From a virus: DNA of 42,494 nt. Made by a program: the position numbers and the translations under genes. Position 1 is the first letter of the stretch. Every line of letters starts with the position of its first letter. Below the pieces are notes generated by a model that was not told the origin of the DNA, ran no database searches, and saw only the letters and a list, made by a program, of their open reading frames with translations. The stretch lies in IMG/VR virus record IMGVR_UViG_3300045988_020762; one strand, written 5' to 3'. Shown here one piece after another: positions 139 through 42,494 of the stretch.

Positions 139-140
139 AG

Positions 141-169
141 AGAGCCGTGTCCGATTCGGACACGGCTCT
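141..169. terminator. Hairpin between convergent genes (bidirectional terminator candidate)
   Basis: Perfect 13-bp stem agagccgtgtccg / cggacacggctct with loop att, followed by T-rich ttctctatcttt. It sits between the stop at 138 (+) and the stop at 173 (-). Confidence 0.7.
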
Positions 170-172
170 TCT

Positions 173-1050: not shown

Positions 1051-1091
1051 GGCAGTTTGAGGGCAGAATACAGGCAGTTTCCGGGCAGTTT
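1051..1091. promoter_or_regulatory. Four direct GGCAG(T/A)(T/A)T repeats at exact 11-bp phasing in a divergent promoter region
   Basis: GGCAG starts at 1051, 1062, 1073 and 1084. The last copy abuts a possible -35 TTGGTT (1091-1096), followed by a 17-nt spacer and CATAAA, upstream of the + cassette. Confidence 0.6.
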
Positions 1092-1139
1092 GGTTGTCCG
1101 GATTTTTTGTATCATAAAAGTGTAAAGGAGGCGCACACA

Positions 1140-1277
1140 ATGTACGAACGGCTTTTGGCCTGCGGGTATCCGACGGATTTGGCGCGAGATATTGTTGCGC
1201 AGACCGATCCGGCGGAGCTGGAACGCTGTGTGCGCATGATCGAGTTGCTCTACGATGACCGGAGGGAGTATGTATAA
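1140..1277 (+). CDS. Hypothetical protein, 45 aa (below ORF-track cutoff)
   Basis: Hand translation MYERLLACGYPTDLARDIVAQTDPAELERCVRMIELLYDDRREYV. AAAGGAGG RBS upstream. The 3' end overlaps the next gene's start. Confidence 0.5.
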   Translation: MYERLLACGYPTDLARDIVAQTDPAELERCVRMIELLYDDRREYV

Positions 1278-1647
1278 CCATTTTAACCCCAACCCCTGCG
1301 GGAAAAATGTGGGGGATTGCACTGTGCGGGCAATCGTCAAGGCTACCGGCAAGGATTGGGGCGAAATTTATTTGTTGCTCTGCATCCAAGGGTATCTTGA
1401 TGGGGATATGCCGTCAGCCAACGCTTGCTGGGGGAGGTATCTGCGGAGCATCGGATACCGGAGGTACATCGTGCCGGATACTTGCCCGGATTGCTACACG
1501 GTGGGGCAGTTTGCGGAGGATCACCCGGTAGGCACGTATATTCTGGCCCTGTCCGGCCATGTGGTCTGCGTGCAAGATGGCACGATCTGGGATAGCTGGG
1601 ACAGCAGCAACGAAACAGTATTGTATTTTTGGGTCAAGGAGGACTGA
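1270..1647 (+). CDS. Hypothetical protein with Cys...His signature (possible papain-like/C39-like peptidase fold), 125 aa
   Basis: Internal ATG 1270 follows GGAGGGAG. Motifs GDCTVRAI and LSGHVVCV...DSWDS suggest a Cys/His/Asp arrangement. The family is not firmly recognised. Confidence 0.55.
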   Translation: MYNHFNPNPCGKNVGDCTVRAIVKATGKDWGEIYLLLCIQGYLDGDMPSANACWGRYLRSIGYRRYIVPDTCPDCYTVGQFAEDHPVGTYILALSGHVVCVQDGTIWDSWDSSNETVLYFWVKED

Positions 1648-1649
1648 TT

Positions 1650-2090
1650 ATGGCTTACACACCTTACGGATGGCAAAATCCCTATTACGCACCGCCTATG
1701 CCGGATAACCTCATGCAGATGCGCCAGCAGCAGATGCAGCCCATGACACCCCAGATGCCGCAGGCCCCGCAAAACCCGGTGGCGCAGAGCGGTGTGCAGT
1801 GGGTCAGCGGCGAACAGGAGGCCCGGAACTGGATGATTGCGCCCAATGCCGCCGTGGCTTTGTGGGACAGCTCCGCGCCTACGGTGTACCTCAAGAAGGC
1901 GGATGCCAGCGGTAAACCGTCCCTCACGATTTATGACCTCGTAGAACGCGCAGAAACGCCCCGTACAGCCACGCAGGAAAAGGGCGTGGAGTTTGTCACC
2001 AGAAAAGAATTCGACGCACTAGCGGCGCTTGTGGGCGAATTGAAGGGCAAGAAGAAGCGCAAGGTAGAGGAGGAAGAGGACGATGAATAA
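1650..2090 (+). CDS. Hypothetical protein, 146 aa, with P/Q/M-rich N-terminus and acidic-basic tail
   Basis: AAGGAGG RBS before ATG 1650 (MAYTPYGWQNPYYAPPMPDNLMQMRQQQMQPM...). Confidence 0.65.
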   Translation: MAYTPYGWQNPYYAPPMPDNLMQMRQQQMQPMTPQMPQAPQNPVAQSGVQWVSGEQEARNWMIAPNAAVALWDSSAPTVYLKKADASGKPSLTIYDLVERAETPRTATQEKGVEFVTRKEFDALAALVGELKGKKKRKVEEEEDDE

Positions 2091-2304
2091 CAATCCGTTT
2101 TTCAATGCGTTAGGTGGCGGACAGATGCCGGGGTCGATGAGCGGCTTTCCTCAGCTTTTACAGCAGTTCAAGCAGTTCAAGGCAAGTTTTAAAGGCGACC
2201 CAAAAGCGGAAGTGGAGAAGATGCTGCAAAGCGGCAAAATCTCACAAGATCAGTTAAACAAGATACAGTCAATGGCAAACCAATTTCAGGGGCTTTTCAA
2301 GTAA
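2083..2304 (+). CDS. Hypothetical small protein, 73 aa
   Basis: ATG 2083 overlaps the previous stop. Q/K-rich helical sequence. Confidence 0.6.
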   Translation: MNNNPFFNALGGGQMPGSMSGFPQLLQQFKQFKASFKGDPKAEVEKMLQSGKISQDQLNKIQSMANQFQGLFK

Positions 2305-2357
2305 TCAAAATCGTGGCCACGGTTTGATATAAATATTTTTTCAAAAGGAGTGATACT

Positions 2358-3074
2358 ATGTCTCTTTCCTCTGACGGCACCATGCTGACTATGCCTGTGG
2401 CTCCTGCCAACACCGGAAACGGTAACGGCTTCGGCTGGGGCGGCGATGGCGCATGGTGGATCGTGCTGTTCCTCATTTTCGCTGCGTTCGGTGGCTGGGG
2501 TAACGGCTTTGGTTTCGGTGGCGGCGGCAACGGCGTGATGGACGGTTATGTCCTGACCTCTGATTTTGCCAATGTCGAGCGCAAGATCGACAGTGTAAAT
2601 CAGGGTCTTTGCGACGGATTTTACCAGCAGGCGCAGCTTATCAACGGCACCAACATGGCGATGGCAAACGGCTTTGGGCAGGCTGAGCTTTCCCGCAGTA
2701 ACCAGCAGGCGGCTCTCATGCAGCAGTTGACTGCCATGCAGATGCAGGCCGCTGAGTGCTGCTGCAACACCCAGCGCAGCATCGAGGGCGTGCGCTATGA
2801 TATGGCGGCGCAGGCTTGCGATACCCGGAACACGGTGCAGAACGCCACCCGGGACATTATCGACAATGCCAACAGCAACAGCCGCGCGATCCTCGATTTC
2901 CTGACCCAGAGCAAGCTGCAGGATCTCCAGAGCGAGAACCAGAGCTTGAAGCTGGCCGCATCTCAGGCGGCGCAGAACAGCTATCTGGTGTCCCAGCTCC
3001 GGCCTTCTCCCATTCCGGCCTACACGGTGCAGAACCCCTATTGCTGCAACCAGTTTGCCGGATGCGGCTGCTGA
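2358..3074 (+). CDS. Hypothetical membrane-associated protein: Gly/aromatic-rich N-terminus with one TM segment, Q/N-rich coiled region, CC/CCC motifs
   Basis: AAAGGAG RBS. The N-terminus GNGNGFGWGGDGAWWIVLFLIFAAFGGWGNGFGFGGGGNG resembles YjcZ-type sporulation peptides. Cys clusters are AECCCN and YCCNQFAGCGC. Confidence 0.7.
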   Translation: MSLSSDGTMLTMPVAPANTGNGNGFGWGGDGAWWIVLFLIFAAFGGWGNGFGFGGGGNGVMDGYVLTSDFANVERKIDSVNQGLCDGFYQQAQLINGTNMAMANGFGQAELSRSNQQAALMQQLTAMQMQAAECCCNTQRSIEGVRYDMAAQACDTRNTVQNATRDIIDNANSNSRAILDFLTQSKLQDLQSENQSLKLAASQAAQNSYLVSQLRPSPIPAYTVQNPYCCNQFAGCGC

Positions 3075-3156
3075 CAACTGCATAGCGTAGCTTTTTGTTG
3101 GCAATGTTTTGTTGACGCCAACAAAATGTTCGGCCCCGTGCCGATACTGATGACAA

Positions 3157-3190
3157 AGCGGCGGGGCAGTAGCCCTGCCGCTGATTTTAT
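3157..3190 (+). terminator. Rho-independent terminator candidate inside the cassette
   Basis: 11-bp stem agcggcggggc / gccctgccgct (one G-U pair), loop agta, followed by gattttat. It lies immediately upstream of the RBS of the 3205 gene. Confidence 0.65.
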
Positions 3191-3204
3191 GAAAGGAGAT
3201 TTCT

Positions 3205-3630
3205 ATGCCTGAATACACTGCCATTGCCGCACAGACCGTAGCGGCAAACCAGAACGTGCTTTTTACGGAAGCACCGATTCCCTGCACTAAGGGCCTTGTG
3301 ACGCACCGCACTGGCTCTGGCCTGTTTAACCTCCGTGGTAACTGCTCCCAGTGCCGTGTCCGCTACAAGGTGGACTTTATTGGCAACATCGCCGTAAGCA
3401 CCGGCGGGACACCCGGTCCCATCTCCGTTGCCATTGCGGTTGACGGTGAGCCGCTCCCGTCCTCCGTTGCGACGGTGACGCCCACGGTTGCGGGGGCATT
3501 TTTTAACGTGGCTGCATCCGAGTACGTTGACGTTACAAAGGGTTGCTGCGCGTCGCTGTCCATCCGCAACGTTAGTGGCGAGGCCATTGACGTGAGCAAC
3601 GCGAACCTTATCATTACCAGAGTTTGCTGA
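3205..3630 (+). CDS. Possible C1q/TNF-like jelly-roll protein resembling BclA C-terminal (exosporium) domains, 141 aa
   Basis: GAAAGGAG RBS. The pattern NQNVLF...GLFNLRG...YKVDFIGNIA...ISVAIAVDGEPLP...LSIRNVSGEAIDVSNANLIITRV parallels BclA-CTD-type sequences. Terminal and internal Cys residues are present. Confidence 0.55.
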   Translation: MPEYTAIAAQTVAANQNVLFTEAPIPCTKGLVTHRTGSGLFNLRGNCSQCRVRYKVDFIGNIAVSTGGTPGPISVAIAVDGEPLPSSVATVTPTVAGAFFNVAASEYVDVTKGCCASLSIRNVSGEAIDVSNANLIITRVC

Positions 3631-3644
3631 GAAAGGAGAACACA

Positions 3645-4010
3645 ATGGGAATGAAATCTATGTATGAACTGCGGGATATGCTCTGCAAGGAGCTGGAAGA
3701 AATCACCCGCAAGGGCGAGCTGGGCGCCGGGGATCTGGACATTGCCCACAAGCTGACGGACACCATCAAAAATATCGACAAAATCGAGGCAATGGACGAG
3801 CGCGGCTATTCCGGGCGCTATCTGGATGATGACCTGCGTGGCTATGGCCGTGGCAGCTCCTATGCCCGTCGGCATTACGTCCGTGGCCATTACAGCCGCA
3901 CGGACGCCACTGAGCATCTTCGTAGCCAGATCAACGATATGATGCGGGAGACCGACGATGATCGCATCAAGGATGCCCTGCGCCGCGCAATGGACATGAT
4001 GGAGGACTAA
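3645..4010 (+). CDS. Hypothetical protein, 121 aa (helical N-half, R/Y/G-rich middle)
   Basis: GAAAGGAG RBS 3631-3638 and ATG 3645 (MGMKSMYELRDML...). Confidence 0.65.
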   Translation: MGMKSMYELRDMLCKELEEITRKGELGAGDLDIAHKLTDTIKNIDKIEAMDERGYSGRYLDDDLRGYGRGSSYARRHYVRGHYSRTDATEHLRSQINDMMRETDDDRIKDALRRAMDMMED

Positions 4011-4024
4011 GGGGGTAGGCCCCA

Positions 4025-4327
4025 ATGATTGACGATCGAGAAGTGGCGCTATGGATCAAGCGGTTAGAGACGGAAGAATCCAGCTGGGCAAACTATGAAA
4101 AGCTGGCGGCGCTGTATACCATCCAAAACCAGAACCGAGAGCCGGTGAGGGAAAGCCGTATGATCGATGCGTATTCTGCGGCTCCCGCGCATGACAGCGA
4201 ATTCCTTCGGGCGGTGTCCAACGTTGACCCAGCTCGTGCGTGGGAGGTCATGGACGAGCTGATGGACAACTTGCAGGTGATAAACGAGCGGGTTTACAAT
4301 AGCGTCATGCGAAAATTGGAAAGCTAA
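4025..4327 (+). CDS. Hypothetical protein, 100 aa
   Basis: AAGGGGG RBS before ATG 4025. Last gene of the + cassette. Confidence 0.65.
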   Translation: MIDDREVALWIKRLETEESSWANYEKLAALYTIQNQNREPVRESRMIDAYSAAPAHDSEFLRAVSNVDPARAWEVMDELMDNLQVINERVYNSVMRKLES

Positions 4328-4331
4328 ACTT

Positions 4332-4370
4332 AACCCCTCGGCAAATGCCGGGGGGTTAGTTATATTTTAA
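4332..4370. terminator. Terminator hairpin between the convergent cassette and the integrase gene
   Basis: Stem aacccctcggc / gccgggggtt (11 bp including one U-G pair), loop aaat, then agttatatttt. Confidence 0.65.
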
Positions 4371-4397
4371 CGTTAGCGTTGCGACATGAAAATAAGA

Positions 4398-5738
4398 CTA
4401 ACTTGGCGTTACAAAAAACGCACCGTCATTGTCTGCGTCGATGCGCTGGATTGTGCGTACCCAGAATTCCTTTTTTGCCTGCCGGTCTAAATCAGGATAT
4501 TCCTTCAATTCCCGCCGTAATGTTTCAAGGTCAAATTCTTTTATAGGCTCCGGGTTTATTGCCGCGAGCTGCTGTTTCAATTCCGTATAGTCTTTTTTGT
4601 ATTCTTCGATTTCAATCAAATCCGACAGATACAGGTCTTTCAGTTTTTGCATTTTCCGCTTGATTTGTTCCGCCGTTTTGGGCGGCTTTTTTTCTGCGGT
4701 TTTTGATTTGGAGTAATACTTTTTTGCGATCCCCTCAAATTCCCGCAGAAGGTAATCCTCCAGCACATCTTCCCGGATCCTGAGAATGTGCGGGCAGTCG
4801 GCTGGGTCGAGTGTGTGCGTTCTGCATCGGTAGTACTTGTACACCTGCTTTACAGTCTCCGGCTGCATATTTCTACCGCACTCCCGGCAACGGAGAATTC
4901 CGGTAAACAAATATATTCGATCCGCACTGGCGTTCCGCTGGCTTCGCCGTTCCAAGATTTTCCCAGCAAGGTCGAAGGTTTCTCGATCGACGAGTGCGGG
5001 CAATGCGTTTTCCACGCCGAACGCCTCACCTAAGTACAGGCGGCTTCTCAACGCATCCTTGTATTTGTTGTACGAGCGTTTGATCCCCCACTCCGTTGCC
5101 ATATACCGCCTTAGCGCAAGGATGCTTTGCAGCCGTATAAAGGCTGGGAACATATCTCGCGCTGCAGCTGCGGTTTCTTCATCAATGGCGTAGCGCCGGT
5201 TCTTCACGCAGATTCCGATAGGAGTTTTCCCGTTAGTGGGCTGGCCCTTTGCCCTCTTGCCCTCGTTGATGGCCTTAATGCGCTCCGATGTGCGGTCAGC
5301 TTCGTCCTGCGCTACCGACAACATAATATTGACCTTCAATCGCCCTGATGCAGTCCGCGTTTCGTAGTCCTCTCTAATGGCCTGCCAATCCACATGATTT
5401 TTGTCGAGAACCTCTTGCACGGCGTAGTACCCCGCCACATTCCGAAACCACCTATCCAGCTTGACAAAAAGGATGGTGTCGATTTTCCCGGCGCGGCAAT
5501 CATCAAGCAGGCGCATCAAGGCCGGACGCTTTTTATACGGCTTTCTGGCGCTGATTCCGGCGTCCTCGTAAATGCCCACAACCTCCATGCCGTGTGCGGC
5601 GGCATATGCAATCAGAGCCTCCCGCTGGTCTGCCAGGGACAGGCCGTGCTTCGCCTGTTCTTCGGTCGATACCCTGATGTACAGTGCTACACGGATGCGT
5701 AGATTATTTGGTAGAGTGACCACTATTTTTTGGCACAT
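4398..5738 (-). CDS. Large serine recombinase (phage integrase)
   Basis: N-terminal resolvase domain (ALYIRVSTEEQ...GLSLADQ), recombinase domain and zinc ribbon (CRECGRNM...YYRC). ATG 5738 is preceded by GGAGGGG. Confidence 0.9.
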   Translation of the reverse strand: MCQKIVVTLPNNLRIRVALYIRVSTEEQAKHGLSLADQREALIAYAAAHGMEVVGIYEDAGISARKPYKKRPALMRLLDDCRAGKIDTILFVKLDRWFRNVAGYYAVQEVLDKNHVDWQAIREDYETRTASGRLKVNIMLSVAQDEADRTSERIKAINEGKRAKGQPTNGKTPIGICVKNRRYAIDEETAAAARDMFPAFIRLQSILALRRYMATEWGIKRSYNKYKDALRSRLYLGEAFGVENALPALVDRETFDLAGKILERRSQRNASADRIYLFTGILRCRECGRNMQPETVKQVYKYYRCRTHTLDPADCPHILRIREDVLEDYLLREFEGIAKKYYSKSKTAEKKPPKTAEQIKRKMQKLKDLYLSDLIEIEEYKKDYTELKQQLAAINPEPIKEFDLETLRRELKEYPDLDRQAKKEFWVRTIQRIDADNDGAFFVTPS

Positions 5739-5739
5739 G

Positions 5740-6174
5740 TTATCCCCTCCAAAATCCATAGTTGGCACAATGGATGTCAACCCAAACGCACCAGGCAAAA
5801 AGCCCGATGATCAATAGTGACAAACCGAGTATGATCCACCTGTATAGCTTCACGGAGTGCCAAAGATTGCACAGTTCTGTGTCCATCAGGCCGATGGTCT
5901 GCCGTTTGTTCTCAAGGCGGTGTTCTAGTCCGTCCTTTTCCGCTTGCAACGTTTCCTCACTGGCCGTCAGATGATCTCCGATGCCGTAAAATTCATCCAG
6001 CGACACGCCAAGGACGGCGCATATTGGCCCAACCGTGGAGATATAGGGGGCCTTGGAAGCATGGGTAAAGAAATTGTTGACGGTAGACGGCGGAATCCCC
6101 GATGCTTCAGCTATGTCCTGAATGGTCATACCCAAAGCGTTACGTTTCGCCTTACAAACTTCCTGAATTGTCAT
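5740..6174 (-). CDS. XRE-family HTH protein with C-terminal transmembrane anchor, 144 aa
   Basis: AAGGAGG RBS before ATG 6174. HTH: MTIQDIAEASGIPPSTVNNF. C-terminal hydrophobic segment: WIILGLSLLIIGLFAWCVWV. Its stop abuts the integrase start. Confidence 0.8.
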   Translation of the reverse strand: MTIQEVCKAKRNALGMTIQDIAEASGIPPSTVNNFFTHASKAPYISTVGPICAVLGVSLDEFYGIGDHLTASEETLQAEKDGLEHRLENKRQTIGLMDTELCNLWHSVKLYRWIILGLSLLIIGLFAWCVWVDIHCANYGFWRG

Positions 6175-7991: not shown

Positions 7992-8702
7992 CTACTCCTG
8001 AATAAATCGTAATGCAGCAGCGTGTAAGTCATGCTCAAATTTTTCGTTTTCAACAGATATCCGTCTATTCCGTTTGTGCTTGTTGTTCTTGATTACGTCA
8101 ATTTTTCTTTTCTTTATTTTATTGATTCTCTCTGCAAAATACTTGTTGTTTAATCCGCCACGGCGAATCGCCTTTTTTAACCAAAATATGGCGTTGTCAA
8201 ATTCCCACTCTTGCTCGTATAACTTGGAAAACATATTGCATGTAAACGCAAAGTTTAATGATGCAAATTTGTCTAAAACTGTGAATGGTATCTTCTCTAT
8301 TGATTCCTCGAAAGCACCAATCGCCGCAAGTCTAAAATCTGCGCCCTTGCAAGCAAGGGCATAAGCCACTGCAAATTTATCAAAATCAGATTTCGAATTT
8401 CTATACTTTGTTGCTGCGATTTCAAAAAGGACATATCGCGGTTTGTATGTTATTACATATGCCTCATTTACAAGCCCCAAAGCCTGATATTTCGCAGGGT
8501 ACTTTGTTTTAACGATGGATAGCACTTCTCTAATGACATCCACCTCATGTGGCGAAAAACGGGTTAAATCATACTTTCTGTTTACCGCAATAATACTTTG
8601 CGACGAATCTTGTTCATACTGTTCTGGATAATAAACATATGGGTTACCCAGACCTTTAGGCCGTGCAAGAATTAAGTCAATATCTAAAAACATATCTACC
8701 AC
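7992..8702 (-). CDS. Hypothetical protein, 236 aa, AT-rich, first gene of the leftward immunity operon
   Basis: Long ORF ending 2 nt before the repressor gene start. Visibly AT-richer than flanking phage genes. Lys/Arg-rich C-terminus. No family recognised. Confidence 0.65.
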   Translation of the reverse strand: MVDMFLDIDLILARPKGLGNPYVYYPEQYEQDSSQSIIAVNRKYDLTRFSPHEVDVIREVLSIVKTKYPAKYQALGLVNEAYVITYKPRYVLFEIAATKYRNSKSDFDKFAVAYALACKGADFRLAAIGAFEESIEKIPFTVLDKFASLNFAFTCNMFSKLYEQEWEFDNAIFWLKKAIRRGGLNNKYFAERINKIKKRKIDVIKNNKHKRNRRISVENEKFEHDLHAAALRFIQE

Positions 8703-10056: not shown

Positions 10057-10284
10057 ATGAACCAGTGTGAGCGGATCTTGAAGTATCTGGATGAACACGG
10101 CAGTATCACACGGGCCGAGGCCATGAGCGAGTGCGGGATCGCCAATTTCACGGCGCGGGTCTCTGACTTGCGGCGGGACGGCGTGGCGCTGGACGTGGAG
10201 ACGGTCACACAGAAGAACCGCTACGGCGAGACCGTGCGGTTTGCGAGATACAGGAGGAAAGAAAATGGCACTGAAATCATTTAA
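10057..10284 (+). CDS. Winged-helix DNA-binding protein, 75 aa
   Basis: GGAGGG RBS. MNQCERILKYLDEHGSITRAEAMSECGIANFTARVSDLRRDG is typical of small phage wHTH proteins. Confidence 0.65.
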   Translation: MNQCERILKYLDEHGSITRAEAMSECGIANFTARVSDLRRDGVALDVETVTQKNRYGETVRFARYRRKENGTEII

Positions 10285-10912
10285 CGAGTTAATTAAAATC
10301 GATGTGCGTCCACAATGCGATATGCGGGATGCCAAAGACGAAAACGGGAAGATAATCAAAGTCCCGTATTTGAGCTGGGGCAAATGTGTGAAGCTGTTGC
10401 ACGAAAACGGAGCAAATGATGTGTGGTATGCGCCGGTGGAGTGCCCAACCACTCACACTTATCTTTGGCCCCAAGCAAAAGTGTCCACCAGCAAGGGGCG
10501 AGATACGGAATGCTGGTTTGTGCGGGTGTTGATCCACATTGACGACTTGGAATTTGTATACGATACGCCGCTGCTGAATGGATCCCTGGTGGTTTACACT
10601 GACACTCTGAACCAGCTGCGGATCAACAATGCCCTTGCCAGAGCATTTGTGAAGGGCGTTGCCATCCGAACCGGATTAGGATTTGACCTGTGGGCAGAAT
10701 CGGACGCTGACGATGGCGAGGACGATTTGAGCCGTCACAATATTTGGGCGATCAAAGAGCGGATCGAACGGCTGATTACCGTGAAGGAGCAAAACGGGCT
10801 TGACCACAGCGATCTGCTGCGTGGTATCGGAATCGGGGATAGAGAGCTGAATAAGTTGATGGGCTATTTCTCCACGATTGATAAATTTGAAAAGGCAGTG
10901 AGCCGGTTATGA
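10265..10912 (+). CDS. Single-strand annealing protein, Sak/DUF1071-like (Rad52 superfamily)
   Basis: AGGAGG RBS before ATG 10265. Motifs ...VPYLSWGKCVKLL... and ...ARAFVKGVAIRTGLGFDLWAESD match the DUF1071 pattern. Followed by an exonuclease gene. Confidence 0.65.
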   Translation: MALKSFNELIKIDVRPQCDMRDAKDENGKIIKVPYLSWGKCVKLLHENGANDVWYAPVECPTTHTYLWPQAKVSTSKGRDTECWFVRVLIHIDDLEFVYDTPLLNGSLVVYTDTLNQLRINNALARAFVKGVAIRTGLGFDLWAESDADDGEDDLSRHNIWAIKERIERLITVKEQNGLDHSDLLRGIGIGDRELNKLMGYFSTIDKFEKAVSRL

Positions 10913-11496
10913 TCCACAACCATGATCGGAGCGGCTGGTTTGGAGCGTCGGACACCTCAACCATCATGGGGAACTGGGCGACAGAGACCTTCCGGAAGTG
11001 GTGGCTGGAGAAGCTGGGATTACGGGAAAACCGATTCCATACCCCCGCTATGCAGGCGGGGACAGCTTATGAACACCGGATTTTGGAGCGCATTTGCGTC
11101 CCGAAGATGGACAGGCAGATACGCATTCCGCGGCTGCGCCTGCGGGTGAACTATGACGGTGAATTTCCAAGGACGATTATAGAGGTCAAGACACACAGTA
11201 AGCCGGGGTTTAAAGTCAGCAAGGCATATTGGCAACAATGCCAAGTGGAGATGTTTGCCAGCGGTTACGGATTCTGGAGAAAGCGGAAAACGTGTTACAT
11301 CGTGGCGTACCAACTGACGGATGCCGAAATGCAGAACTACTTTTTACCAGTAGATAGCAGACGGCTATCACACCACGAAGTCCGGTATGACGCTCAGTGG
11401 GTGAGAGACGCATATTTGCCGCGGCTGCGGTATTTGGCGAAATGTCTGAAAATAGGACATTGGCCGAGGATGGAGGAACTTTATGGAGCGGGTTAA
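10909..11496 (+). CDS. YqaJ-like viral recombinase exonuclease (PD-(D/E)xK)
   Basis: WFGASDTSTIMG N-terminal motif, YEHRI, and IIEVKT catalytic E-x-K. ATGA coupling to the SSAP gene. Confidence 0.8.
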   Translation: MIHNHDRSGWFGASDTSTIMGNWATETFRKWWLEKLGLRENRFHTPAMQAGTAYEHRILERICVPKMDRQIRIPRLRLRVNYDGEFPRTIIEVKTHSKPGFKVSKAYWQQCQVEMFASGYGFWRKRKTCYIVAYQLTDAEMQNYFLPVDSRRLSHHEVRYDAQWVRDAYLPRLRYLAKCLKIGHWPRMEELYGAG

Positions 11497-36573: not shown

Positions 36574-38703
36574 ATGGATTATATCATGATCGGCCCCTAC
36601 CAGTTTGATCGGGATGCATCTAAGGACGATATGCGGTTAGACTACTGCTCATCTTTTCAAGAAGTTGCATTGGATGAAAGCAGCCTTTCGTTCGATACGG
36701 TCAGCGTAGAAGTTTGCACCACAACAATAGGCGCACAGCTTTCTGCACTCCCCAATAATACCCCCATCATTGTTTACAGAGGCGGCGAAATCAAAGCAAG
36801 ATTTGTAAGCAGCGGCGTTTCCCGTATCGGGCCTGTCACTTATCAACTTACAGGGCGGTCTCCTATGGGCGCGCTTACCGGCATGGTGCATACTGGCGGC
36901 ATTTACACAGGCCAGACCGTGGAAGAGGTTGTAAAAGAAATCTGCGGCAACATCCCTTCGCTGATAAAAAGTGTATATGCCGGAGTTAAACTTTATGGCT
37001 GGCTTCCTTATGCGGATGGGAAAGAACGCTCTGCACGAGACAACCTCGCACAAGTTCTTTTCGCCATTGGGGCCTATCTTTGTACGGACCTAAACGGCGT
37101 TTTGAGAATTGAGCCATTGTGGGACGGTACGGCATCACTAATTGAAGTTGACCGCTCTTACACCGGGGGAACTGTGAAATATGATTCTCCCATCTCCGCC
37201 GTGACGGTGACAGAGCACCAGTATGTGGCGGGGACGGAAACGAAGGAGTTGTTTTCCGGCACGGCGCAGAATGGCGATATCATCACAATCTCTGAGCCGA
37301 TGCACTCCCTCTCCGCAACCGGCTTTACCATTCTGGAAAGCGGCGCGAACTACGCAAAGATTTCCGCAGGAACTGGCGCACTGACCGGAAAGGCGTATAT
37401 CCACAACACCCGCTTAATCACTCAGCCCGTGACGGCAGGCGCGGCGGAAAACGTGAAGTCGGTTACGGATGCCACACTGGTATCTCTGGTAAACTCCTAC
37501 GCCGTGGCGAAGCGTCTTGCAGACTATTACCGATGCCGCGAAACTATCACCAATGACATTGTAAGCGGACATGAGAAACCGGGCCATGTTGTGAGCGTAT
37601 ATCATCCGTATGACAAGAAAATGGTTTCTGCGTGTATCCAGTCTTTGGACACCACCATGAGCGCGACGCTAAAAAGCAGCATGGAGGCGCTGGTTGGATT
37701 CACCCCGGCACAGCCGGAATCTGCGGAGTATTTTGACGAGCGGGTTCTGCTGACCGGATCGGGCACGTGGACGCCGCCGGAAGGCGCCGAAGCACTGACG
37801 GTGGTCCTGATCGGAGACGGGCAGGACGGCACTGCCGGGCAGAATGGTGAAGGCGTGGCACTCACGGGCCAGACGATCCCAAACACCTGTTCCGGCTCCT
37901 TTCCCAGTGCGCCCGCCGGAAAAGGCGGCAAGGCAGGTGCTCCCGGCTCCGGCGGCAAGATTTTTCAAATCACCATAGACATCACCCCCGGCATGAGCTT
38001 TTCCTATGCCACCAGCCAAAACGGCGAGGCCGTATTCGGAAGCCATTCCAGCGCGGAAGGCTCTGCGTCTGCCAGTGGTTACTATGATGACGTCACCGGG
38101 AAAACCTATGCCCGGCAGGGCGCGGTTGGCTACGACGGCGGTGACGGCGGCGCTCCCGGCGCATCCGGCGGGTCTGTGGCCGGCTACAAAGGCGGCTACG
38201 GATACAAACCGGCGGAATACACCATGCGGATGACCGAGGACAACATCCGCTATACGCAGACCTTCAAGCACCAGGGCATCGGCGGACCCGGCGCGGCGAT
38301 GGGGACAGAAGTCACATGGGGGCCGTCTGTTTTCTCTGTCGGCCTGCCGACATTTATTCCCAATATCGAAATCAAAGGCAGTGCCCCCGGCGCATCGGCA
38401 GTTCCCGGCGCTGACGGCGAAAACTACGGCGATGGCGGCGGAGCCGGGCACGGTGGCGGCGGTGCAGGCGGAATTGGCAGTTGTAGCATCTCAATGTCTC
38501 CCACGCCCCCGTCCACGCAGCACCAGTCTATCAACTTTTCCGGCGACCTCCAGCGCGGCGGCTCCGGCAGCAAAGGCGGCAAAGGACAGCCCGGCTGCAT
38601 CATCCTGTTTTACGGGAAGAAGAAAACCATCAAGTCTGGCCCATTGGTACAAAAGGGCGGCGGGTTGTTTTTCGACCGCCTAAACAAACTTTTCATCGTG
38701 TGA
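36574..38703 (+). CDS. Tail-associated/baseplate protein with C-terminal glycine-rich domain
   Basis: 709 aa. The N-terminal ~390 aa are tail-tip-like. The C-terminal region starts at TGSGTWTPPEGAEALTVVLIGDGQDG and has many GG runs. Confidence 0.75.
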   Translation: MDYIMIGPYQFDRDASKDDMRLDYCSSFQEVALDESSLSFDTVSVEVCTTTIGAQLSALPNNTPIIVYRGGEIKARFVSSGVSRIGPVTYQLTGRSPMGALTGMVHTGGIYTGQTVEEVVKEICGNIPSLIKSVYAGVKLYGWLPYADGKERSARDNLAQVLFAIGAYLCTDLNGVLRIEPLWDGTASLIEVDRSYTGGTVKYDSPISAVTVTEHQYVAGTETKELFSGTAQNGDIITISEPMHSLSATGFTILESGANYAKISAGTGALTGKAYIHNTRLITQPVTAGAAENVKSVTDATLVSLVNSYAVAKRLADYYRCRETITNDIVSGHEKPGHVVSVYHPYDKKMVSACIQSLDTTMSATLKSSMEALVGFTPAQPESAEYFDERVLLTGSGTWTPPEGAEALTVVLIGDGQDGTAGQNGEGVALTGQTIPNTCSGSFPSAPAGKGGKAGAPGSGGKIFQITIDITPGMSFSYATSQNGEAVFGSHSSAEGSASASGYYDDVTGKTYARQGAVGYDGGDGGAPGASGGSVAGYKGGYGYKPAEYTMRMTEDNIRYTQTFKHQGIGGPGAAMGTEVTWGPSVFSVGLPTFIPNIEIKGSAPGASAVPGADGENYGDGGGAGHGGGGAGGIGSCSISMSPTPPSTQHQSINFSGDLQRGGSGSKGGKGQPGCIILFYGKKKTIKSGPLVQKGGGLFFDRLNKLFIV

Positions 38704-38713
38704 GGTGTGAAAA

Positions 38714-40087
38714 ATGACGATTGAACAGAGAGTCGCAGTCTTGGAGGAAATTTTCTCCAAGCTGAACGACTATTACACATCCGCCTACTCCGGCGAGGAA
38801 ATTGACGCGCGGCTGGCGTCCGCCGGTGTGCCTATCGGCATCACCAAGGAGTACAAGAGCGTGGCCGAAATGAACCAGGACTTCACCGGTACGGACGTCC
38901 AGCGCGGCCAGTTCGTCCTGATCCTGCCGGACAGCACGGCCTCCGCGGACTATGGCAAGGTGTACCTCAAGGGCACGGCCAACTGGGTGCCTGCCTTTAC
39001 GCTGACCACGCTCACGTCCATCAAAGGTCCCATTGGCCCTCCCGGCAAAAAGGGCGACAAGGGCGATCCCGGCGAGGCCGGTTCCAGCTTCGTCATTCTG
39101 GGCTACTTCGACACGCTGGACGCCCTCAAGGCAGCCGTCCTAAATCCCAAGGCCGGTGACGTGTACGGCGTGGGCACTGCGCCTCCGTACAACATCTACA
39201 TCTGGGATTCCGTCCACGGCAAGTGGGTGGGCAACGGCAACCTGCAAGGCCCGCAGGGCGAGCAGGGCATCCAAGGCCCCGAAGGGAAACAGGGGCCGGA
39301 GGGCAAGCAAGGCCCGGAAGGCCCCGTGGGCGGTTCCAGCAACTTCGTCCGCTACGATGCGCCCCAGAACCTCACAGACGAGCAGAAGGCGCAGGCGCGG
39401 AAAAATATCAACTCCGCCCCCGGCGGGTTTGGGTGGGGTGAAGCGATGAAAGATGTGCTCGCATCCGAGGTCGAAGACACCTATAAAACATACTGTGGCA
39501 AGCTTGATATGCTGCTTGCCGATATGCCAGACGGAACATCGCAACTTATTTATACACGTGGCCCAGTTTCAACGGGCCAATATTCTGGGGCCGGGAATAT
39601 CGTTGCCGTTCTATCAAAAATATTGGGGACGAGCGCATCACTGATCGGCCTTTCGCCTGATCCGAGAGGCACTACCAACGGATTGTGGCGAATGCTGAAG
39701 GATAACGGGAATTGGCAGCCCGTCGAATGGATCAATCCTCCCATGCAACTGGGCGTAGAATACCGCACCACGGAGCGGTATCTCGGAAAGCCGGTGTATG
39801 TGAAAACCATAAACATGGGGAATCTTCCGGGCAATGCCGTAAAAATGGCCAGTTTCCAATCAAATAACGTTGTCGATAAAATCGTGTCCGTAACCGGGCA
39901 ATGCACTACCGACTCAGGAGTGAACGTGTCCATGCCTTACCACGCAGGGTCTGGTCCGAACTGGAACACTGTAATTTTAATTGGCGCAGATGGGTCCGGA
40001 GCAGCTCAGATTGTCACATTTGCCCCAGATTTCTCCGAATACAAGAATGCATGTATTACGGTGAAATACACCAAGCTGGCAGATTAA
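38714..40087 (+). CDS. Tail fiber / receptor-binding protein with two collagen-like G-X-Y tracts
   Basis: GPIGPPGKKGDKGDPGEAG (nt 39026-39082) and GPQGEQGIQGPEGKQGPEGKQGPEGPVGG (nt 39248-39334). Confidence 0.8.
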   Translation: MTIEQRVAVLEEIFSKLNDYYTSAYSGEEIDARLASAGVPIGITKEYKSVAEMNQDFTGTDVQRGQFVLILPDSTASADYGKVYLKGTANWVPAFTLTTLTSIKGPIGPPGKKGDKGDPGEAGSSFVILGYFDTLDALKAAVLNPKAGDVYGVGTAPPYNIYIWDSVHGKWVGNGNLQGPQGEQGIQGPEGKQGPEGKQGPEGPVGGSSNFVRYDAPQNLTDEQKAQARKNINSAPGGFGWGEAMKDVLASEVEDTYKTYCGKLDMLLADMPDGTSQLIYTRGPVSTGQYSGAGNIVAVLSKILGTSASLIGLSPDPRGTTNGLWRMLKDNGNWQPVEWINPPMQLGVEYRTTERYLGKPVYVKTINMGNLPGNAVKMASFQSNNVVDKIVSVTGQCTTDSGVNVSMPYHAGSGPNWNTVILIGADGSGAAQIVTFAPDFSEYKNACITVKYTKLAD

Positions 40088-40275: not shown

Positions 40276-40581
40276 ATGGAAATTTTACAAATTGTATTAA
40301 CTGCCGCCACCGGCTCCGGCGTGACCGCCATCATCCTCGCGATCCTCCAGCGGAAATGGGCCAAGGATGACAAGCGGGACGCCATCGTGGACGCGCTGAA
40401 AGTGCTGCTGATCGACCGGGTGCGCTATCTGGGCCAGCATTACATTGCAGACGGCAGCGTCAGCCTGTCAGACAGGGAAACGCTGGACGAGATGCATCAG
40501 GCGTATAAATCCCTTGGCGGCAACGGACACCTGAAAATCATCATGGCCGAGGTCGGCGAGCTGCCGATCCGGAAAGAGTGA
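40276..40581 (+). CDS. Membrane protein with single N-terminal TM (possible holin-associated)
   Basis: MEILQIVLTAATGSGVTAIILAILQRKW... Lies upstream of the holin. Confidence 0.55.
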   Translation: MEILQIVLTAATGSGVTAIILAILQRKWAKDDKRDAIVDALKVLLIDRVRYLGQHYIADGSVSLSDRETLDEMHQAYKSLGGNGHLKIIMAEVGELPIRKE

Positions 40582-40593
40582 AAGGAGAACGCT

Positions 40594-40785
40594 ATGGAAA
40601 ACATCAAGAAACGGCTGGGCAATCTGCTTGCGGTGAAGTCTCTGGTGACCATCACCCTGACTGTGATCTTCGCGGTGCTGGCCCTGCGGGGTGACATTTC
40701 CGGAACGGAATTTTTGACGATCTTTACCACCGTGATCGCGTTCTATTTCGGGACGCAGCGAGTGGCAGAAGATAAAAACGGTTGA
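40594..40785 (+). CDS. Holin (two TM segments), 63 aa
   Basis: Hydrophobic segments LLAVKSLVTITLTVIFAVLAL and FLTIFTTVIAFYFG, a charged C-terminus, and position before the endolysin. Confidence 0.7.
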   Translation: MENIKKRLGNLLAVKSLVTITLTVIFAVLALRGDISGTEFLTIFTTVIAFYFGTQRVAEDKNG

Positions 40786-40848: not shown

Positions 40849-41232
40849 ATGAACAAGATCTACGAAAACATCATCACCGAGGGCAAGCAGAACGGCAAGC
40901 CCATCGAGGCCATCAACACCGAGCTGAAGGATGCCGGAGCAAACTTCCACCTGAATCCCGACGGCGGCGTGGCCGGGTGGACGGAGCAGGAGATGAGAGA
41001 GGGATTCATCCCGGCTGCGGATGACGGGAAGGACGGCATCTACAAGATCGCCAGCGATGGCAAGCCTGTCCGCTACTCCAACATGGCGCCCGGCGGTGGG
41101 GTCTACGGCACTGCCATCCCCGTGATGGATCGGGACAAGAGCCGCGCCGATACTGTCATCACCGTGGGTCGCTGGGAGCTGTCTTATGATAGTCTGGGTT
41201 GCTGCTACAGCCGCAAGTATCTGAGAAAATGA
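40849..41232 (+). CDS. Hypothetical protein, 127 aa, between holin and endolysin
   Basis: GAAAGGGG RBS. No family recognised. Confidence 0.6.
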   Translation: MNKIYENIITEGKQNGKPIEAINTELKDAGANFHLNPDGGVAGWTEQEMREGFIPAADDGKDGIYKIASDGKPVRYSNMAPGGGVYGTAIPVMDRDKSRADTVITVGRWELSYDSLGCCYSRKYLRK

Positions 41233-42245
41233 CCAGAGCGGGGACAGTTCCGCTTCAGGACCTCCAATGGGTGCGGATTTATTTGAACAGAAAACGTCTC
41301 CGCTCCACCAAGGCCAACCTCAAGAAGATGCTGGCGGAGACAGGCGGAGACGCGATCTGTAACGGCTCCATTTTCCTACGGAACCAGCAGCCCGCCTGCC
41401 ACCTGAAGGCAGACGGAAAGGTTTACAAGGCCCCGGACTATCGGGCATGGGCCATCAGCTGGAACACCCCGGAGGATTTCGGCGTAAAAACAGTACCCAA
41501 CGGGGACGCGAACTACATGGAGTGTGTCCACCTAATCGTCGGCGGGAAGAAGATCAGCCCCGTCACCTGCGGAGCGGATATGCGCTACCGTGCGCCCCGA
41601 ACGGCCATCGGCACCAAGGACGGGCGGTTTGCCTACTATGTGAGCAAGGACCGGCGGTCGCCGGAACAGCTCCGTGATTTGCTGGTATCCTCCGGCTGGG
41701 ACAACGCCATTATGATGGACGGCGGCGGAAGCACCTGCTTCATGGACAAGGACGGCAATGGTTTTACCGGGGACGGGCGGGTGATCCCGTTTTTCCTCGT
41801 CTGGAAACTGAAAAGCGGGGACGCATTTGAACCGGAAGGAGAAAAACCCATGGTAGAGATCAACGCTTATTCCAAGGCGAAGGACGGCGGCAAGAAACTG
41901 TCCACAAACTTTGCAGTGAAAGAATTTGCCTGCAAGGACGGCTCCGATGCCGTGCTGGTAGCGCCCCGGCTGGTGATGGTTTTGCAGAGCCTCCGCAGTC
42001 ACTTTTGCGCGGCTGTGACCATCAACAGTGGGTATCGGACGCCCCAGTACAACGCCAGAGTGGGCGGCGTGACGGACAGCCAGCACTGCTACGGCACGGC
42101 GGCTGACATTGTGGTGCGGGGCAAGACCCCGGCGCAGGTGGCGGCTTATGCACGGCAGCTGATGCCCGATTGGGGCGGCGTGGGGGTTTATGACAGCTTT
42201 TGTCATATCGACGTGAGAGAGGCCAAGGCTGACTGGAAAGGATAA
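41229..42245 (+). CDS. Two-domain endolysin: phosphodiester glycosidase (NAGPA/DUF2233)-like N-domain plus peptidase M15-like C-domain
   Basis: GGDAICNGSIF and AIMMDGGGSTCF (NAGPA-like). FAVKEFACKDG...INSGYRTPQYNARVGGVTDSQHCYGTAADI...FCHIDVR (M15 zinc peptidase H..D..H pattern). Confidence 0.8.
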   Translation: MTRAGTVPLQDLQWVRIYLNRKRLRSTKANLKKMLAETGGDAICNGSIFLRNQQPACHLKADGKVYKAPDYRAWAISWNTPEDFGVKTVPNGDANYMECVHLIVGGKKISPVTCGADMRYRAPRTAIGTKDGRFAYYVSKDRRSPEQLRDLLVSSGWDNAIMMDGGGSTCFMDKDGNGFTGDGRVIPFFLVWKLKSGDAFEPEGEKPMVEINAYSKAKDGGKKLSTNFAVKEFACKDGSDAVLVAPRLVMVLQSLRSHFCAAVTINSGYRTPQYNARVGGVTDSQHCYGTAADIVVRGKTPAQVAAYARQLMPDWGGVGVYDSFCHIDVREAKADWKG

Positions 42246-42318: not shown

Positions 42319-42494
42319 ATGGAAAAAGAACACCGGGAGATCCGGGCGCTGTTGTCATCCATGGCCCCGGCCCGGGCGGCGCAGGCCGTCCGGCTGGTAG
42401 GCTTGCCGCCTGACGAGGAGACGGCGGTGCTGGCGGTGGACGTCCACGGCCAGAGCTGCCTACAGGCGGCGGCGCTGCTCCACGTCAGCGTGGA
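42319..42494 (+). CDS. 5' part of junction-spanning sigma-70 region-4-like HTH gene (continues at 1..138)
   Basis: ATG 42319 (MEKEHREIRALLSSMAPARAAQAVRLVGLPPDEETAVLAVD...). The frame runs off the window end and matches frame 1 at base 1. Confidence 0.55.
   Translation, partial: MEKEHREIRALLSSMAPARAAQAVRLVGLPPDEETAVLAVDVHGQSCLQAAALLHVSV
42418..42494. repeat. Second copy of the 77-nt terminal overlap
   Basis: Identical to 1..77. Confidence 0.97.

Follow-up and report, generated by a model that had tools for sequence, protein, structure and literature searches.

A 42,494-nucleotide stretch of viral DNA (IMG/VR record IMGVR_UViG_3300045988_020762; the window, meaning this whole stretch) carries a cassette of eight tightly packed plus-strand genes, g1 to g8 (1140-4327), that we interpret as part of the phage life cycle. 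In our best explanation, to which we assign a probability of roughly 40%, the cassette and the sigma-like gene ahead of it form a module for the productive cycle that acts as a cysteine-stapled membrane assembly in lysis or egress. The general part of this reading, that the cassette is a membrane module of the phage life cycle rather than cargo for the spore surface, we consider likely. The specific role in lysis or egress is tentative and, taken by itself, somewhat doubtful. A spore-related side role is possible in sporulating hosts, as the soluble products lack signal peptides, like coat and exosporium proteins. The module moves, is kept once acquired, has its own regulator, and occurs in virulent as well as temperate phages, and we therefore read it as serving the productive cycle. 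Phages whose hosts form no spores, and predicted archaeal viruses, also carry its central gene, g5; a function that depends on spores or on lysogeny could therefore not hold for the family as a whole. The cytoplasmic membrane is the only envelope layer common to all hosts of g5-bearing phages. That g5 is universal, a predicted membrane protein, and a neighbor of lysis genes argues for an assembly anchored in the membrane and acting at the end of infection.

The eight genes encode proteins of 45, 130, 146, 73, 238, 141, 121, and 100 amino acids, and their places, sizes, and compositions bear out a preliminary description of the block made from the sequence alone. The first, g1 (1140-1277), is preceded by AGGAGG 8 nt ahead of its ATG, encodes a helical protein, and overlaps g2 (1255-1647; phrog_3754), which encodes a Cys-His-Asp protein. 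Two nucleotides separate g2 from g3 (1650-2090; phrog_21718), which in turn overlaps the translationally coupled g4 (2083-2304; Q/M-rich; phrog_22984). The core membrane protein is encoded by g5 (2358-3074; phrog_16490) and a TNF/C1q-type jelly roll by g6 (3205-3630; phrog_20016), followed by g7 (3645-4010; phrog_28802) and g8 (4025-4327; helical). Shine-Dalgarno sequences are strong for g1, g5, and g6. Searches of Pfam (E ≤1), NCBIfam, and PADLOC (E ≤1) returned no match for any of the eight proteins, and PHROGs placed six of them in families, all of unknown function. The block thus contains no recognizable virion, lysis, or replication domain and matches no library entry, in line with its earlier portrayal as an undescribed phage-borne unit; it also appears to be co-regulated. 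A literature search on the module, phrog_16490, phage C3_41T2LP, and the C. perfringens phages found no paper on function.

Conservation across relatives shows that the cassette is maintained as a unit. The seven genes testable by the ratio of nonsynonymous to synonymous substitution rates (dN/dS) are under purifying selection, with medians against relatives of 0.07-0.23 for g1-g3 and g5-g8 (0.14 for g1); g4 stands outside this result, having no pairs in the usable divergence range. The preliminary description had suggested looking for the same gene order in other prophages. A scan by g5 alignment (g5 identity 48-100%) found the g2-g8 order kept in about 75 of 80 IMG/VR loci, and overall it recurs in more than 100 contigs. 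A one-genome-per-species scan added 80 further loci, many with equal order, mostly in Oscillospiraceae, Ruminococcaceae, Lachnospiraceae, and Acutalibacteraceae. Here and below, host labels of metagenomic bins are used as in the records, several of which are clearly mis-binned. The least conserved member is g1, which only some loci carry. Toward distant lineages, the conserved core is reduced to g5, g6, and g7, and g2 is sometimes located behind g7.

Loci chosen independently of the cassette, by integrase identity of 85-100%, provided a measure of retention. All eight genes were present in every locus with enough sequence (44 of 44), with zero losses. Within this lineage the cassette is mosaic, alleles of g1 and g3-g6 having been exchanged among close relatives. 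The deepest allele split is that of g6 (46% identity in the integrase-matched set), and the idea that g6 is the sole hypervariable gene was rejected, as g1, g3, g4, and g5 are also mosaic in that set.

The module extends to a cultured phage that lacks an integrase. In the Butyrivibrio phage Ceridwen, hidden Markov model (HMM) matches at E values of 1e-18 to 1e-54 place it after a glucosaminidase endolysin, in the order 73-amino-acid sigma-4-like gene, annotated terminator, g2, g3, g4, g5, g6, homing endonuclease, g7, and g8. Ceridwen came from plaques formed on B. fibrisolvens DSM 3071, its growth was seen as lytic only, it has no excisionase, and its authors consider it probably virulent (PMC7372960). 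Taken together, the module behaves as a horizontally mobile, self-contained phage unit that includes the sigma-like gene.

The most widespread component is g5. It holds the only strongly hydrophobic segment in the block (residues 32-48, KD17 1.81), within a single predicted membrane helix at about residues 32-55 that is flanked by glycine and aromatic residues. A helical, Q/N-rich domain of about 180 residues follows. Among nine cysteines, CCC134-136, C154, and C236 are invariant, and the protein also has an RPxPxPAY motif and a CxC tail. The Gly/aromatic transmembrane protein with a CCC motif of the preliminary description is therefore present as drawn. Its comparison with a YjcZ-like peptide did not hold up, since Pfam gave no such match even at E ≤1 and g5 is 238 amino acids long. 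No PDB-sequence match to g5 was found either (profile search, nothing below E 0.1). A phmmer search of 1.84 billion representatives recovered 1,755 clusters at 50% identity, 840 of them with E ≤1e-10. All are about 90-330 amino acids long and therefore offer no informative fusions. The exact g5 sequence of the window was seen on 198 contigs. Among about 55 loci, the sole apparent disruption is in the close relative L241, where g5 is split into two open reading frames (about 10116-10980) by a frameshift or insertion.

Beyond Bacillota, the g5 HMM matched near full length in crAss-like Steigviridae (E = 2e-34), in Suoliviridae (E = 7e-34), and in phage C3_41T2LP (E = 3e-33), which forms plaques on Bacteroides uniformis. 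It also matched over most of its length in predicted Methanomassiliicoccales viruses (E = 2e-16; host label as in the database record). To our knowledge, none of the hosts of the crAss-like phages, the B. uniformis phage, or the Methanomassiliicoccales viruses makes spores. The genes after g5 in the Bacteroidota versions resemble g6 and g3 in size and composition only. They encode a beta-rich Cys protein, a beta-domain-plus-coiled-coil protein, an R/D/E/Y-rich peptide, DUF7841, and small HExxH peptidases. Homology of these genes to g6 and g3 was rejected by hhalign (probability ≤1%), so that the statement that Bacteroidota carry the same module is limited to g5. We also considered g4 as a detached N-terminal extension of the long crAss-type g5, and rejected it (hhalign probability 0.3%).

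Several further features were seen at these Bacteroidota loci. DUF7841 occurs together with g5 in two of the loci we retrieved (L247 3192-3935, E = 1.7e-39; L175 9357-9758, E = 5e-16). Small HExxH proteins stand in place of g2, one of them annotated as a PolyVal metallopeptidase. In the crAss-like phages cr53_1 (L173 5530-6444) and cr52_1 (L246 3983-4906), the g5 homologs and their neighbors hold in-frame stops under translation table 11. Stop-codon recoding has been reported for some crAss-like phages, and the in-frame stops are consistent with it.

Lysis genes are recurrent neighbors of g5. With its first and last 77 bp identical (1-77 and 42418-42494), the window closes into a circular phage genome of 42,417 bp, and the endolysin at its end (41199-42245) therefore truly sits just upstream of the cassette. 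Its NAGPA and Peptidase_M15_3 domains agree with the endolysin expected there from the preliminary description. In independent lineages, the first large gene upstream encodes an endolysin from one of seven catalytic families: M15 in the window, PGRP in Dulem virus 33, C39-like in bajarodcaudo virus 5, glucosaminidase in Ceridwen, and GH25, Amidase_3, or Amidase_2 in loci from the genome scan. The g5 cluster lies between a pholin and an L,D-transpeptidase-like lysin in crAss-like cr1_1, and after a holin and a LysB/FtsL-like gene in cr52_1 and cr53_1. The endolysin itself is a single fused NAGPA + Peptidase_M15 gene in the window and in an integrated copy (L006), and is split into genes for 226 and 133 amino acids in several close relatives (e.g. 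L003 7278-8352).

Judged by its sequence, g5 combines a membrane helix with endolysin linkage, as a holin-type protein would. It belongs to no known holin family in Pfam. Assignment as a spanin, which would call for an outer-membrane lipoprotein partner and a diderm host, does not fit, as most hosts are monoderm Clostridia. Inspection of the neighboring gene sequences revealed no lipobox-type N-termini near g5.

The cassette is delimited by hairpins and preceded by a candidate control region. A 78-amino-acid helix-turn-helix protein resembling sigma-70 region 4 is encoded on the plus strand across the circular junction (5′ part 42319-42494, 3′ part 78-138). The sigma region-4-like flank named in the preliminary description is thus seen, albeit below the cut-off of Sigma70_r4_2 (E = 1e-4; 22.3 bits against 25.7). 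The gene is the last one ahead of the cassette in relatives, and lies upstream of it in more than 40 loci and in Ceridwen. It is followed by a terminator-like hairpin (140-170, plus strand) with a 14-bp stem, formed by a perfect 14-nt inverted repeat (141-169) and kept in relatives. Directly upstream of g1, four GGCAG boxes are arrayed at an exact 11-bp spacing (1051-1088, plus strand). This array is unique in the genome, its count was reached in 0 of 100 shuffles, and it is kept at the equivalent place in 10 close relatives. From its sequence and position, the array probably serves the cassette as an operator or as an activator site, and the sigma-4-like protein may be its binder. The fourth box overlaps a second hairpin (1080-1102, plus strand), which is followed by T6 and lies directly upstream of the g1 ribosome-binding site. 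Between g5 and g6, a GC-rich hairpin with a U-tract (3157-3182, plus strand) may be an internal attenuator. A terminator-like hairpin with a 13-bp stem (4330-4359, plus strand) closes the cassette. Given these hairpins and boxes, the cassette appears insulated from the late operon, with its own candidate control region.

At least five lineages have a homing endonuclease next to g5 or g6 (examples at L006 10888-11559, L001 7280-7831, L002 7044-7667, L175 6270-6890, and L249 7518-8312), and the g5-g6 spacer of the window (3075-3204, 131 bp) is an empty site for such an element. Their repeated presence beside g5 suggests frequent co-infection of module-bearing phages. This would suit a conflict module, in which g5 and its partners mediate superinfection exclusion or inter-phage competition by blocking the DNA entry or assembly of a competitor. 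Such a module could likewise be autonomous, carry its own regulator, move between genomic positions, occur in temperate and virulent phages alike, and show mosaic alleles among close relatives. Yet none of the eight proteins matches a PADLOC model of known anti-phage defense, and a set of seven or eight genes with neither a nuclease nor an ATPase does not resemble known exclusion systems. Accessory defense cargo would also not usually be retained universally or be under strong purifying selection. We consider a conflict function quite unlikely.

Structural modeling was most informative for g6. Its AlphaFold model is all-beta, with a predicted local distance difference test (pLDDT) score of 86.4 from a 105-sequence alignment that is shallow in diversity. 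Foldseek against the PDB matched the F-BclA C-terminal domain, ExsFA, BxpB, and BclA (E from 2.5e-8, for F-BclA, to 4e-6), and the model superposes on 9h38, 7r1m, 8d02, 9h3d, and 1wck at template-modeling (TM) scores of 0.71-0.77. TNF ligands, Pgp3, and phage fiber knobs came next. Among predicted viral structures, the closest, at TM 0.77-0.87, were uncharacterized stand-alone proteins of about 135 amino acids encoded by gut phages with each of the three tail types, followed by collagen-like proteins with C1q heads. The modeled fold has the ten strands of the BclA-CTD/C1q-TNF jelly-roll superfamily, and the sequence carries an invariant GCC motif. No curated family in Pfam or NCBIfam matched g6, and a PDB-sequence profile gave nothing below E 0.3. 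All 141 residues form the globular domain, with no GXY repeats and no exosporium-targeting N-terminus. By its model, g6 joins the TNF/C1q/BclA-CTD fold class as a new member with a divergent sequence. The jelly-roll candidate of the preliminary description is accordingly supported by the model, and its BclA-type domain stands as to fold; g6 is not BclA proper, because it lacks a collagen region and a targeting motif.

These exosporium matches bear on the view put forward in the preliminary description, that the cassette is lysogenic-conversion cargo and modifies the surface of the host cell or spore. On this view, the prophage would express it, perhaps in the mother cell, and its products would remodel that surface or be built into it. 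The solved structures closest to g6 are exosporium proteins, and the Cys-, Tyr-, Gly-, and Gln-rich compositions of the products, together with a papain-like or transglutaminase-like triad in g2, recall coat chemistry. The lack of signal peptides on the soluble products would fit assembly in the mother-cell cytoplasm. The location also fits. In L006, a 170-kb contig with an integrated copy, host genes directly follow g8, the integrase is absent from that side, and similarity to the window stops at about 4380 (prophage junction, attP side, 4370-4381). No other block thus separates the cassette, whose own terminator lies about 20 bp before the junction, from attR; this is the outermost position in the prophage and agrees with the cargo-type position originally ascribed to it. 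The host flank includes genes for TSCPD, a SleB-like hydrolase, PBP5, and a GerM-like protein.

Distribution and retention argue against this view, and we rate it as very unlikely. Cargo genes are usually variable among phages, and fixation of the module in its lineage was for this reason counted against cargo. The cassette is never lost within the lineage, is complete in the integrase-less Ceridwen, and lies in the head operon in two lineages. B. fibrisolvens is not known to sporulate, and the occurrence of homologs in its lytic-only phage argues against an exosporium location as a general property of g6. Relatives were also found in genomes labeled Subdoligranulum, Agathobaculum, Lachnospira, and Ruminococcus bicirculans, none of which is known to us to sporulate. 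With g5 present in crAss-like, Bacteroides, and predicted archaeal viruses, a spore-surface role could not be the general function of the module. No sigma-70-type promoter was detected upstream of g1 at the scan threshold, a comparison by eye with the consensus of sporulation-type promoters was unconvincing, and neither YjcZ nor BclA was matched in Pfam.

A peptidase-like arrangement was found in g2. Translation from 1255 gives 130 amino acids; most homologs begin at the Met equivalent to 1270, the likely true start. The Cys/His composition noted earlier for this protein reflects three residues, Cys22, His102, and Asp113, that are invariant in 121 sequences. In the AlphaFold model (pLDDT 91.6, from an alignment shallow in diversity), Cys22 lies at the start of a helix (22-31), His102 at the start of a strand (102-107), and Asp113 terminates the following strand (110-113). 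This is the clan CA arrangement, in which a conserved Cys at a helix N-terminus is followed by His and Asp/Asn on later strands. No sequence match was found in Pfam, or below E 0.1 in a PDB sequence profile. Foldseek hits were weak (best E 0.33; TM ≤0.31 for AvrPphB, USP, PLpro, and Tae4), although almost all were papain-like. The g2 model is confident; with no significant PDB neighbor, neither "C39 peptidase" nor "transglutaminase" can be asserted.

Outside the module, g2 homologs stand alone in Bacillus Tsamsa-like phages, Geobacillus GBK2, and Lak megaphages. In the large Bacillus siphophage Tsamsa, gp15-gp16 (L250 3983-4839) comprise a g2-family gene without g5, followed by a gene for a 127-amino-acid protein with a weak g8-like match (E = 0.003). 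Possibly g2 and g8 constitute a separate, smaller module.

The remaining products are mostly of low complexity or helical. The P/Q-rich protein of the preliminary description is g3, whose P/Q/Y-rich N-terminus contains the motif MPDQLAQLRQ and is followed by a small beta domain, a helix, and an acidic tail; neither Pfam nor a PDB sequence profile (nothing below E 0.1) matched it. Its small Q-rich protein is g4 (23% Q+N). In g7, helical N- and C-terminal parts surround an R/G/Y/S-rich region of "YSR" repeats. In C. perfringens phage CPD1, g8 is fused with a g7-like N-terminus.

These properties suggest how a membrane assembly serving the productive cycle might work. Late in infection, the cassette would be switched on through its own regulated promoter, perhaps by the sigma-4-like protein acting on the GGCAG boxes. 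The g5 protein would insert into the cytoplasmic membrane and oligomerize through its long helical domain, with the invariant Cys layers and CxC tail stapling it by metal or disulfide. Cytoplasmic partners would gather on g5, namely a g6 trimer, g3, the Q-rich g4, and the helical g7 and g8, while the g2 peptidase would process a low-complexity partner. The assembly would then act at the end of the cycle, most likely by controlling or executing lysis or egress. Its architecture would fit an accessory lysis factor of the membrane, comparable to XhlA or to the class III holin T.

Several observations weigh against this reading. The window already has two holin-like genes (40276-40785) in addition to its endolysin. 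A lysis device would not be expected to include a soluble trimer of TNF type or several cytoplasmic proteins of low complexity. Adjacency to lysins may be positional, because accessory genes generally accumulate where the late operon ends. Only g5 is demonstrably common to the Bacteroidota and archaeal versions, whose neighbors show no similarity to g3 or g6. Placement also varies. In Dulem virus 35 and L156, the cassette lies inside the head operon, between minor capsid protein 2 and the scaffold, and in C3_41T2LP g5 lies among recombination genes. In Dulem virus 39, the module follows the integrase.

The head-operon placement would suit a structure that is assembled in the cytoplasm and leaves with the particle, in which g5 is a Cys-stapled coiled-coil shaft or an ejected, membrane-inserting protein, g6 its TNF/C1q-type knob, g7 and g8 chaperones, and g2 a maturation peptidase. 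The fold of g6 is that of many viral fiber knobs and collagen-like heads, and the soluble members lack signal peptides. The cassette is co-oriented with the late genes, has strong ribosome-binding sites, and adjoins tail genes and targets of diversity-generating retroelements in cr52_1, cr53_1, and vir215. Fixation in the lineage combined with exchange of g1 and g3-g6 alleles would be compatible with such a role. In records from third parties, homologs of g5 bear the names "spike protein/glycoprotein" or "outer capsid protein/viral fiber", but these labels are not experimental. A conserved, strongly hydrophobic helix of membrane type is, however, unusual for a fiber, and no g6-like domain occurs in the tail-fiber genes within the flanks retrieved (at most 10 kb on each side). 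Two hairpins and a control region of its own set the cassette apart from the structural operon, and in C3_41T2LP the neighbors of g5 are of early type. We therefore judge a virion-associated structure, the main rival reading, to be unlikely, and favor the membrane module of the productive cycle.

The surrounding genome places the cassette between the lysis genes and the integrase. Around the circle, tail-fiber genes (36574-40087), one with collagen-like repeats, are followed by the two holin-like genes, a gene for 127 amino acids, the endolysin, the sigma-like gene, its hairpin, minus-strand genes, and the cassette. Past the closing hairpin come a convergent large serine recombinase (4398-5798, minus strand; Resolvase and Zn_ribbon_recom) and an XRE-type repressor; the recombinase, which is context rather than part of the module, is the convergent integrase of the preliminary description. 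The minus-strand genes are four small genes (173-1031) lying between two hairpins and outside the module. They are missing from most relatives, where the sigma-like gene is followed by two tandem hairpins and then g1, and they look like a recent insertion. Pfam matched none of them. Two appear ribbon-helix-helix-like by eye, and the regulators of this type proposed in the preliminary description as flanks of the block consequently lack Pfam support.

Other features were noted in passing. The tail-fiber gene at 38714-40087 contains collagen-like G-X-Y runs (e.g. GPIGPPGKKGDKGDPGEAG), for which a connection with the ExsFA-like g6 is conceivable. A tRNA-Thr (CGT) gene lies mid-genome (20873-20950). 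In L163, from Lachnospira intestinalis, a 162-amino-acid protein with sigma-70 regions 3 and 4 (8173-8661, minus strand) is encoded directly upstream of a divergent g3-like/g5/g6 cluster, a further case in which the module adjoins a sigma-type regulator. With host genes on one side, this locus was considered as a non-prophage chromosomal copy; it is probably a prophage edge, because a Rha regulator and the sigma-like gene surround the cluster.

In our rating, no described phage, defense, or sporulation system has this gene set, a judgment based on failed membership tests. A bolder proposal, which we put forward as speculative and rather unlikely, is that g5 represents a new cross-domain class of phage membrane protein that nucleates a Cys-stapled, self-assembling layer at the membrane of the infected cell as an egress component. 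Its Clostridial partners would be exosporium-like, namely a trimer of ExsFA/BclA fold, proteins rich in Cys, Tyr, and Gln, and a papain-like or transglutaminase-like enzyme. If true, this would imply that a phage module and the architecture of the spore surface are related by evolution, with g5 ranging over Bacillota, Bacteroidota including crAss-like phages, and viruses of gut methanogens. A shared function of g5 would also fill a gap in how abundant gut phages finish their cycle. The phage of the window is among the commoner prophages of human-gut Oscillospiraceae, and curated libraries offer no functional handle on any of the eight proteins. Whichever way ancestry runs, the ExsFA/BclA fold of g6 ties phage dark matter to the structural biology of the exosporium. 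The complete module is available in a cultured pair, Ceridwen and Butyrivibrio fibrisolvens DSM 3071.

Comparison with known systems places g5 closest to single-helix lysis proteins in architecture. T4 holin T, PBSX XhlA, and the i-spanin Rz each have one membrane helix and a large extra-membrane domain. Similarly, g5 has a single N-proximal helix and a long helical domain containing cysteines, and is often encoded beside a holin or endolysin. Unlike them, it matches none of those families in sequence and lies near no visible outer-membrane lipoprotein partner, its hosts including monoderms and a predicted archaeon. In Clostridial phages it also comes with five soluble partners and a peptidase.

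Moron cassettes, such as the lambda b region and the staphylococcal immune-evasion clusters, likewise lie between lysis genes and attP at the att-proximal end, with their own terminator. Two of three moron features tested, variable presence and restriction to temperate phages, were contradicted by the 44 of 44 loci and by Ceridwen, respectively. In contrast to morons, the present cassette is invariable in its lineage and is found in integrase-less phages and head operons; no known effector domain was detected in it with Pfam, NCBIfam, or PADLOC. YjcZ-type sporulation peptides share with g5 a Gly-rich, aromatic-flanked, short hydrophobic core, a resemblance that was proposed in the preliminary description and has no Pfam support. 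They differ from g5 in that it has 238 amino acids with a 180-residue helical, Cys-rich domain and occurs in phages of non-sporulating hosts.

The order of Cys on a helix and His and Asp on strands is shared between g2 and papain-like clan CA proteins (C39-like, YopT/AvrPphB, and Tae4). In contrast to these, g2 has just 125-130 amino acids and an extra invariant Cys pair, C77 and C80 (CPxC). Finally, g6 is a stand-alone protein without a signal peptide, as are ExsFA and BxpB (about 140-170 amino acids). ExsFA in Bacillus anchors collagen-like filaments. Identity of g6 to BclA, F-BclA, ExsFA, and BxpB is only 13-18%, with no Pfam match, and the collagen-like region and exosporium-targeting N-terminus of BclA are absent. 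Unlike BclA and ExsFA, g6 is phage-encoded, including in the phage of a non-sporulating host, and its closer structural relatives are gut-phage proteins.

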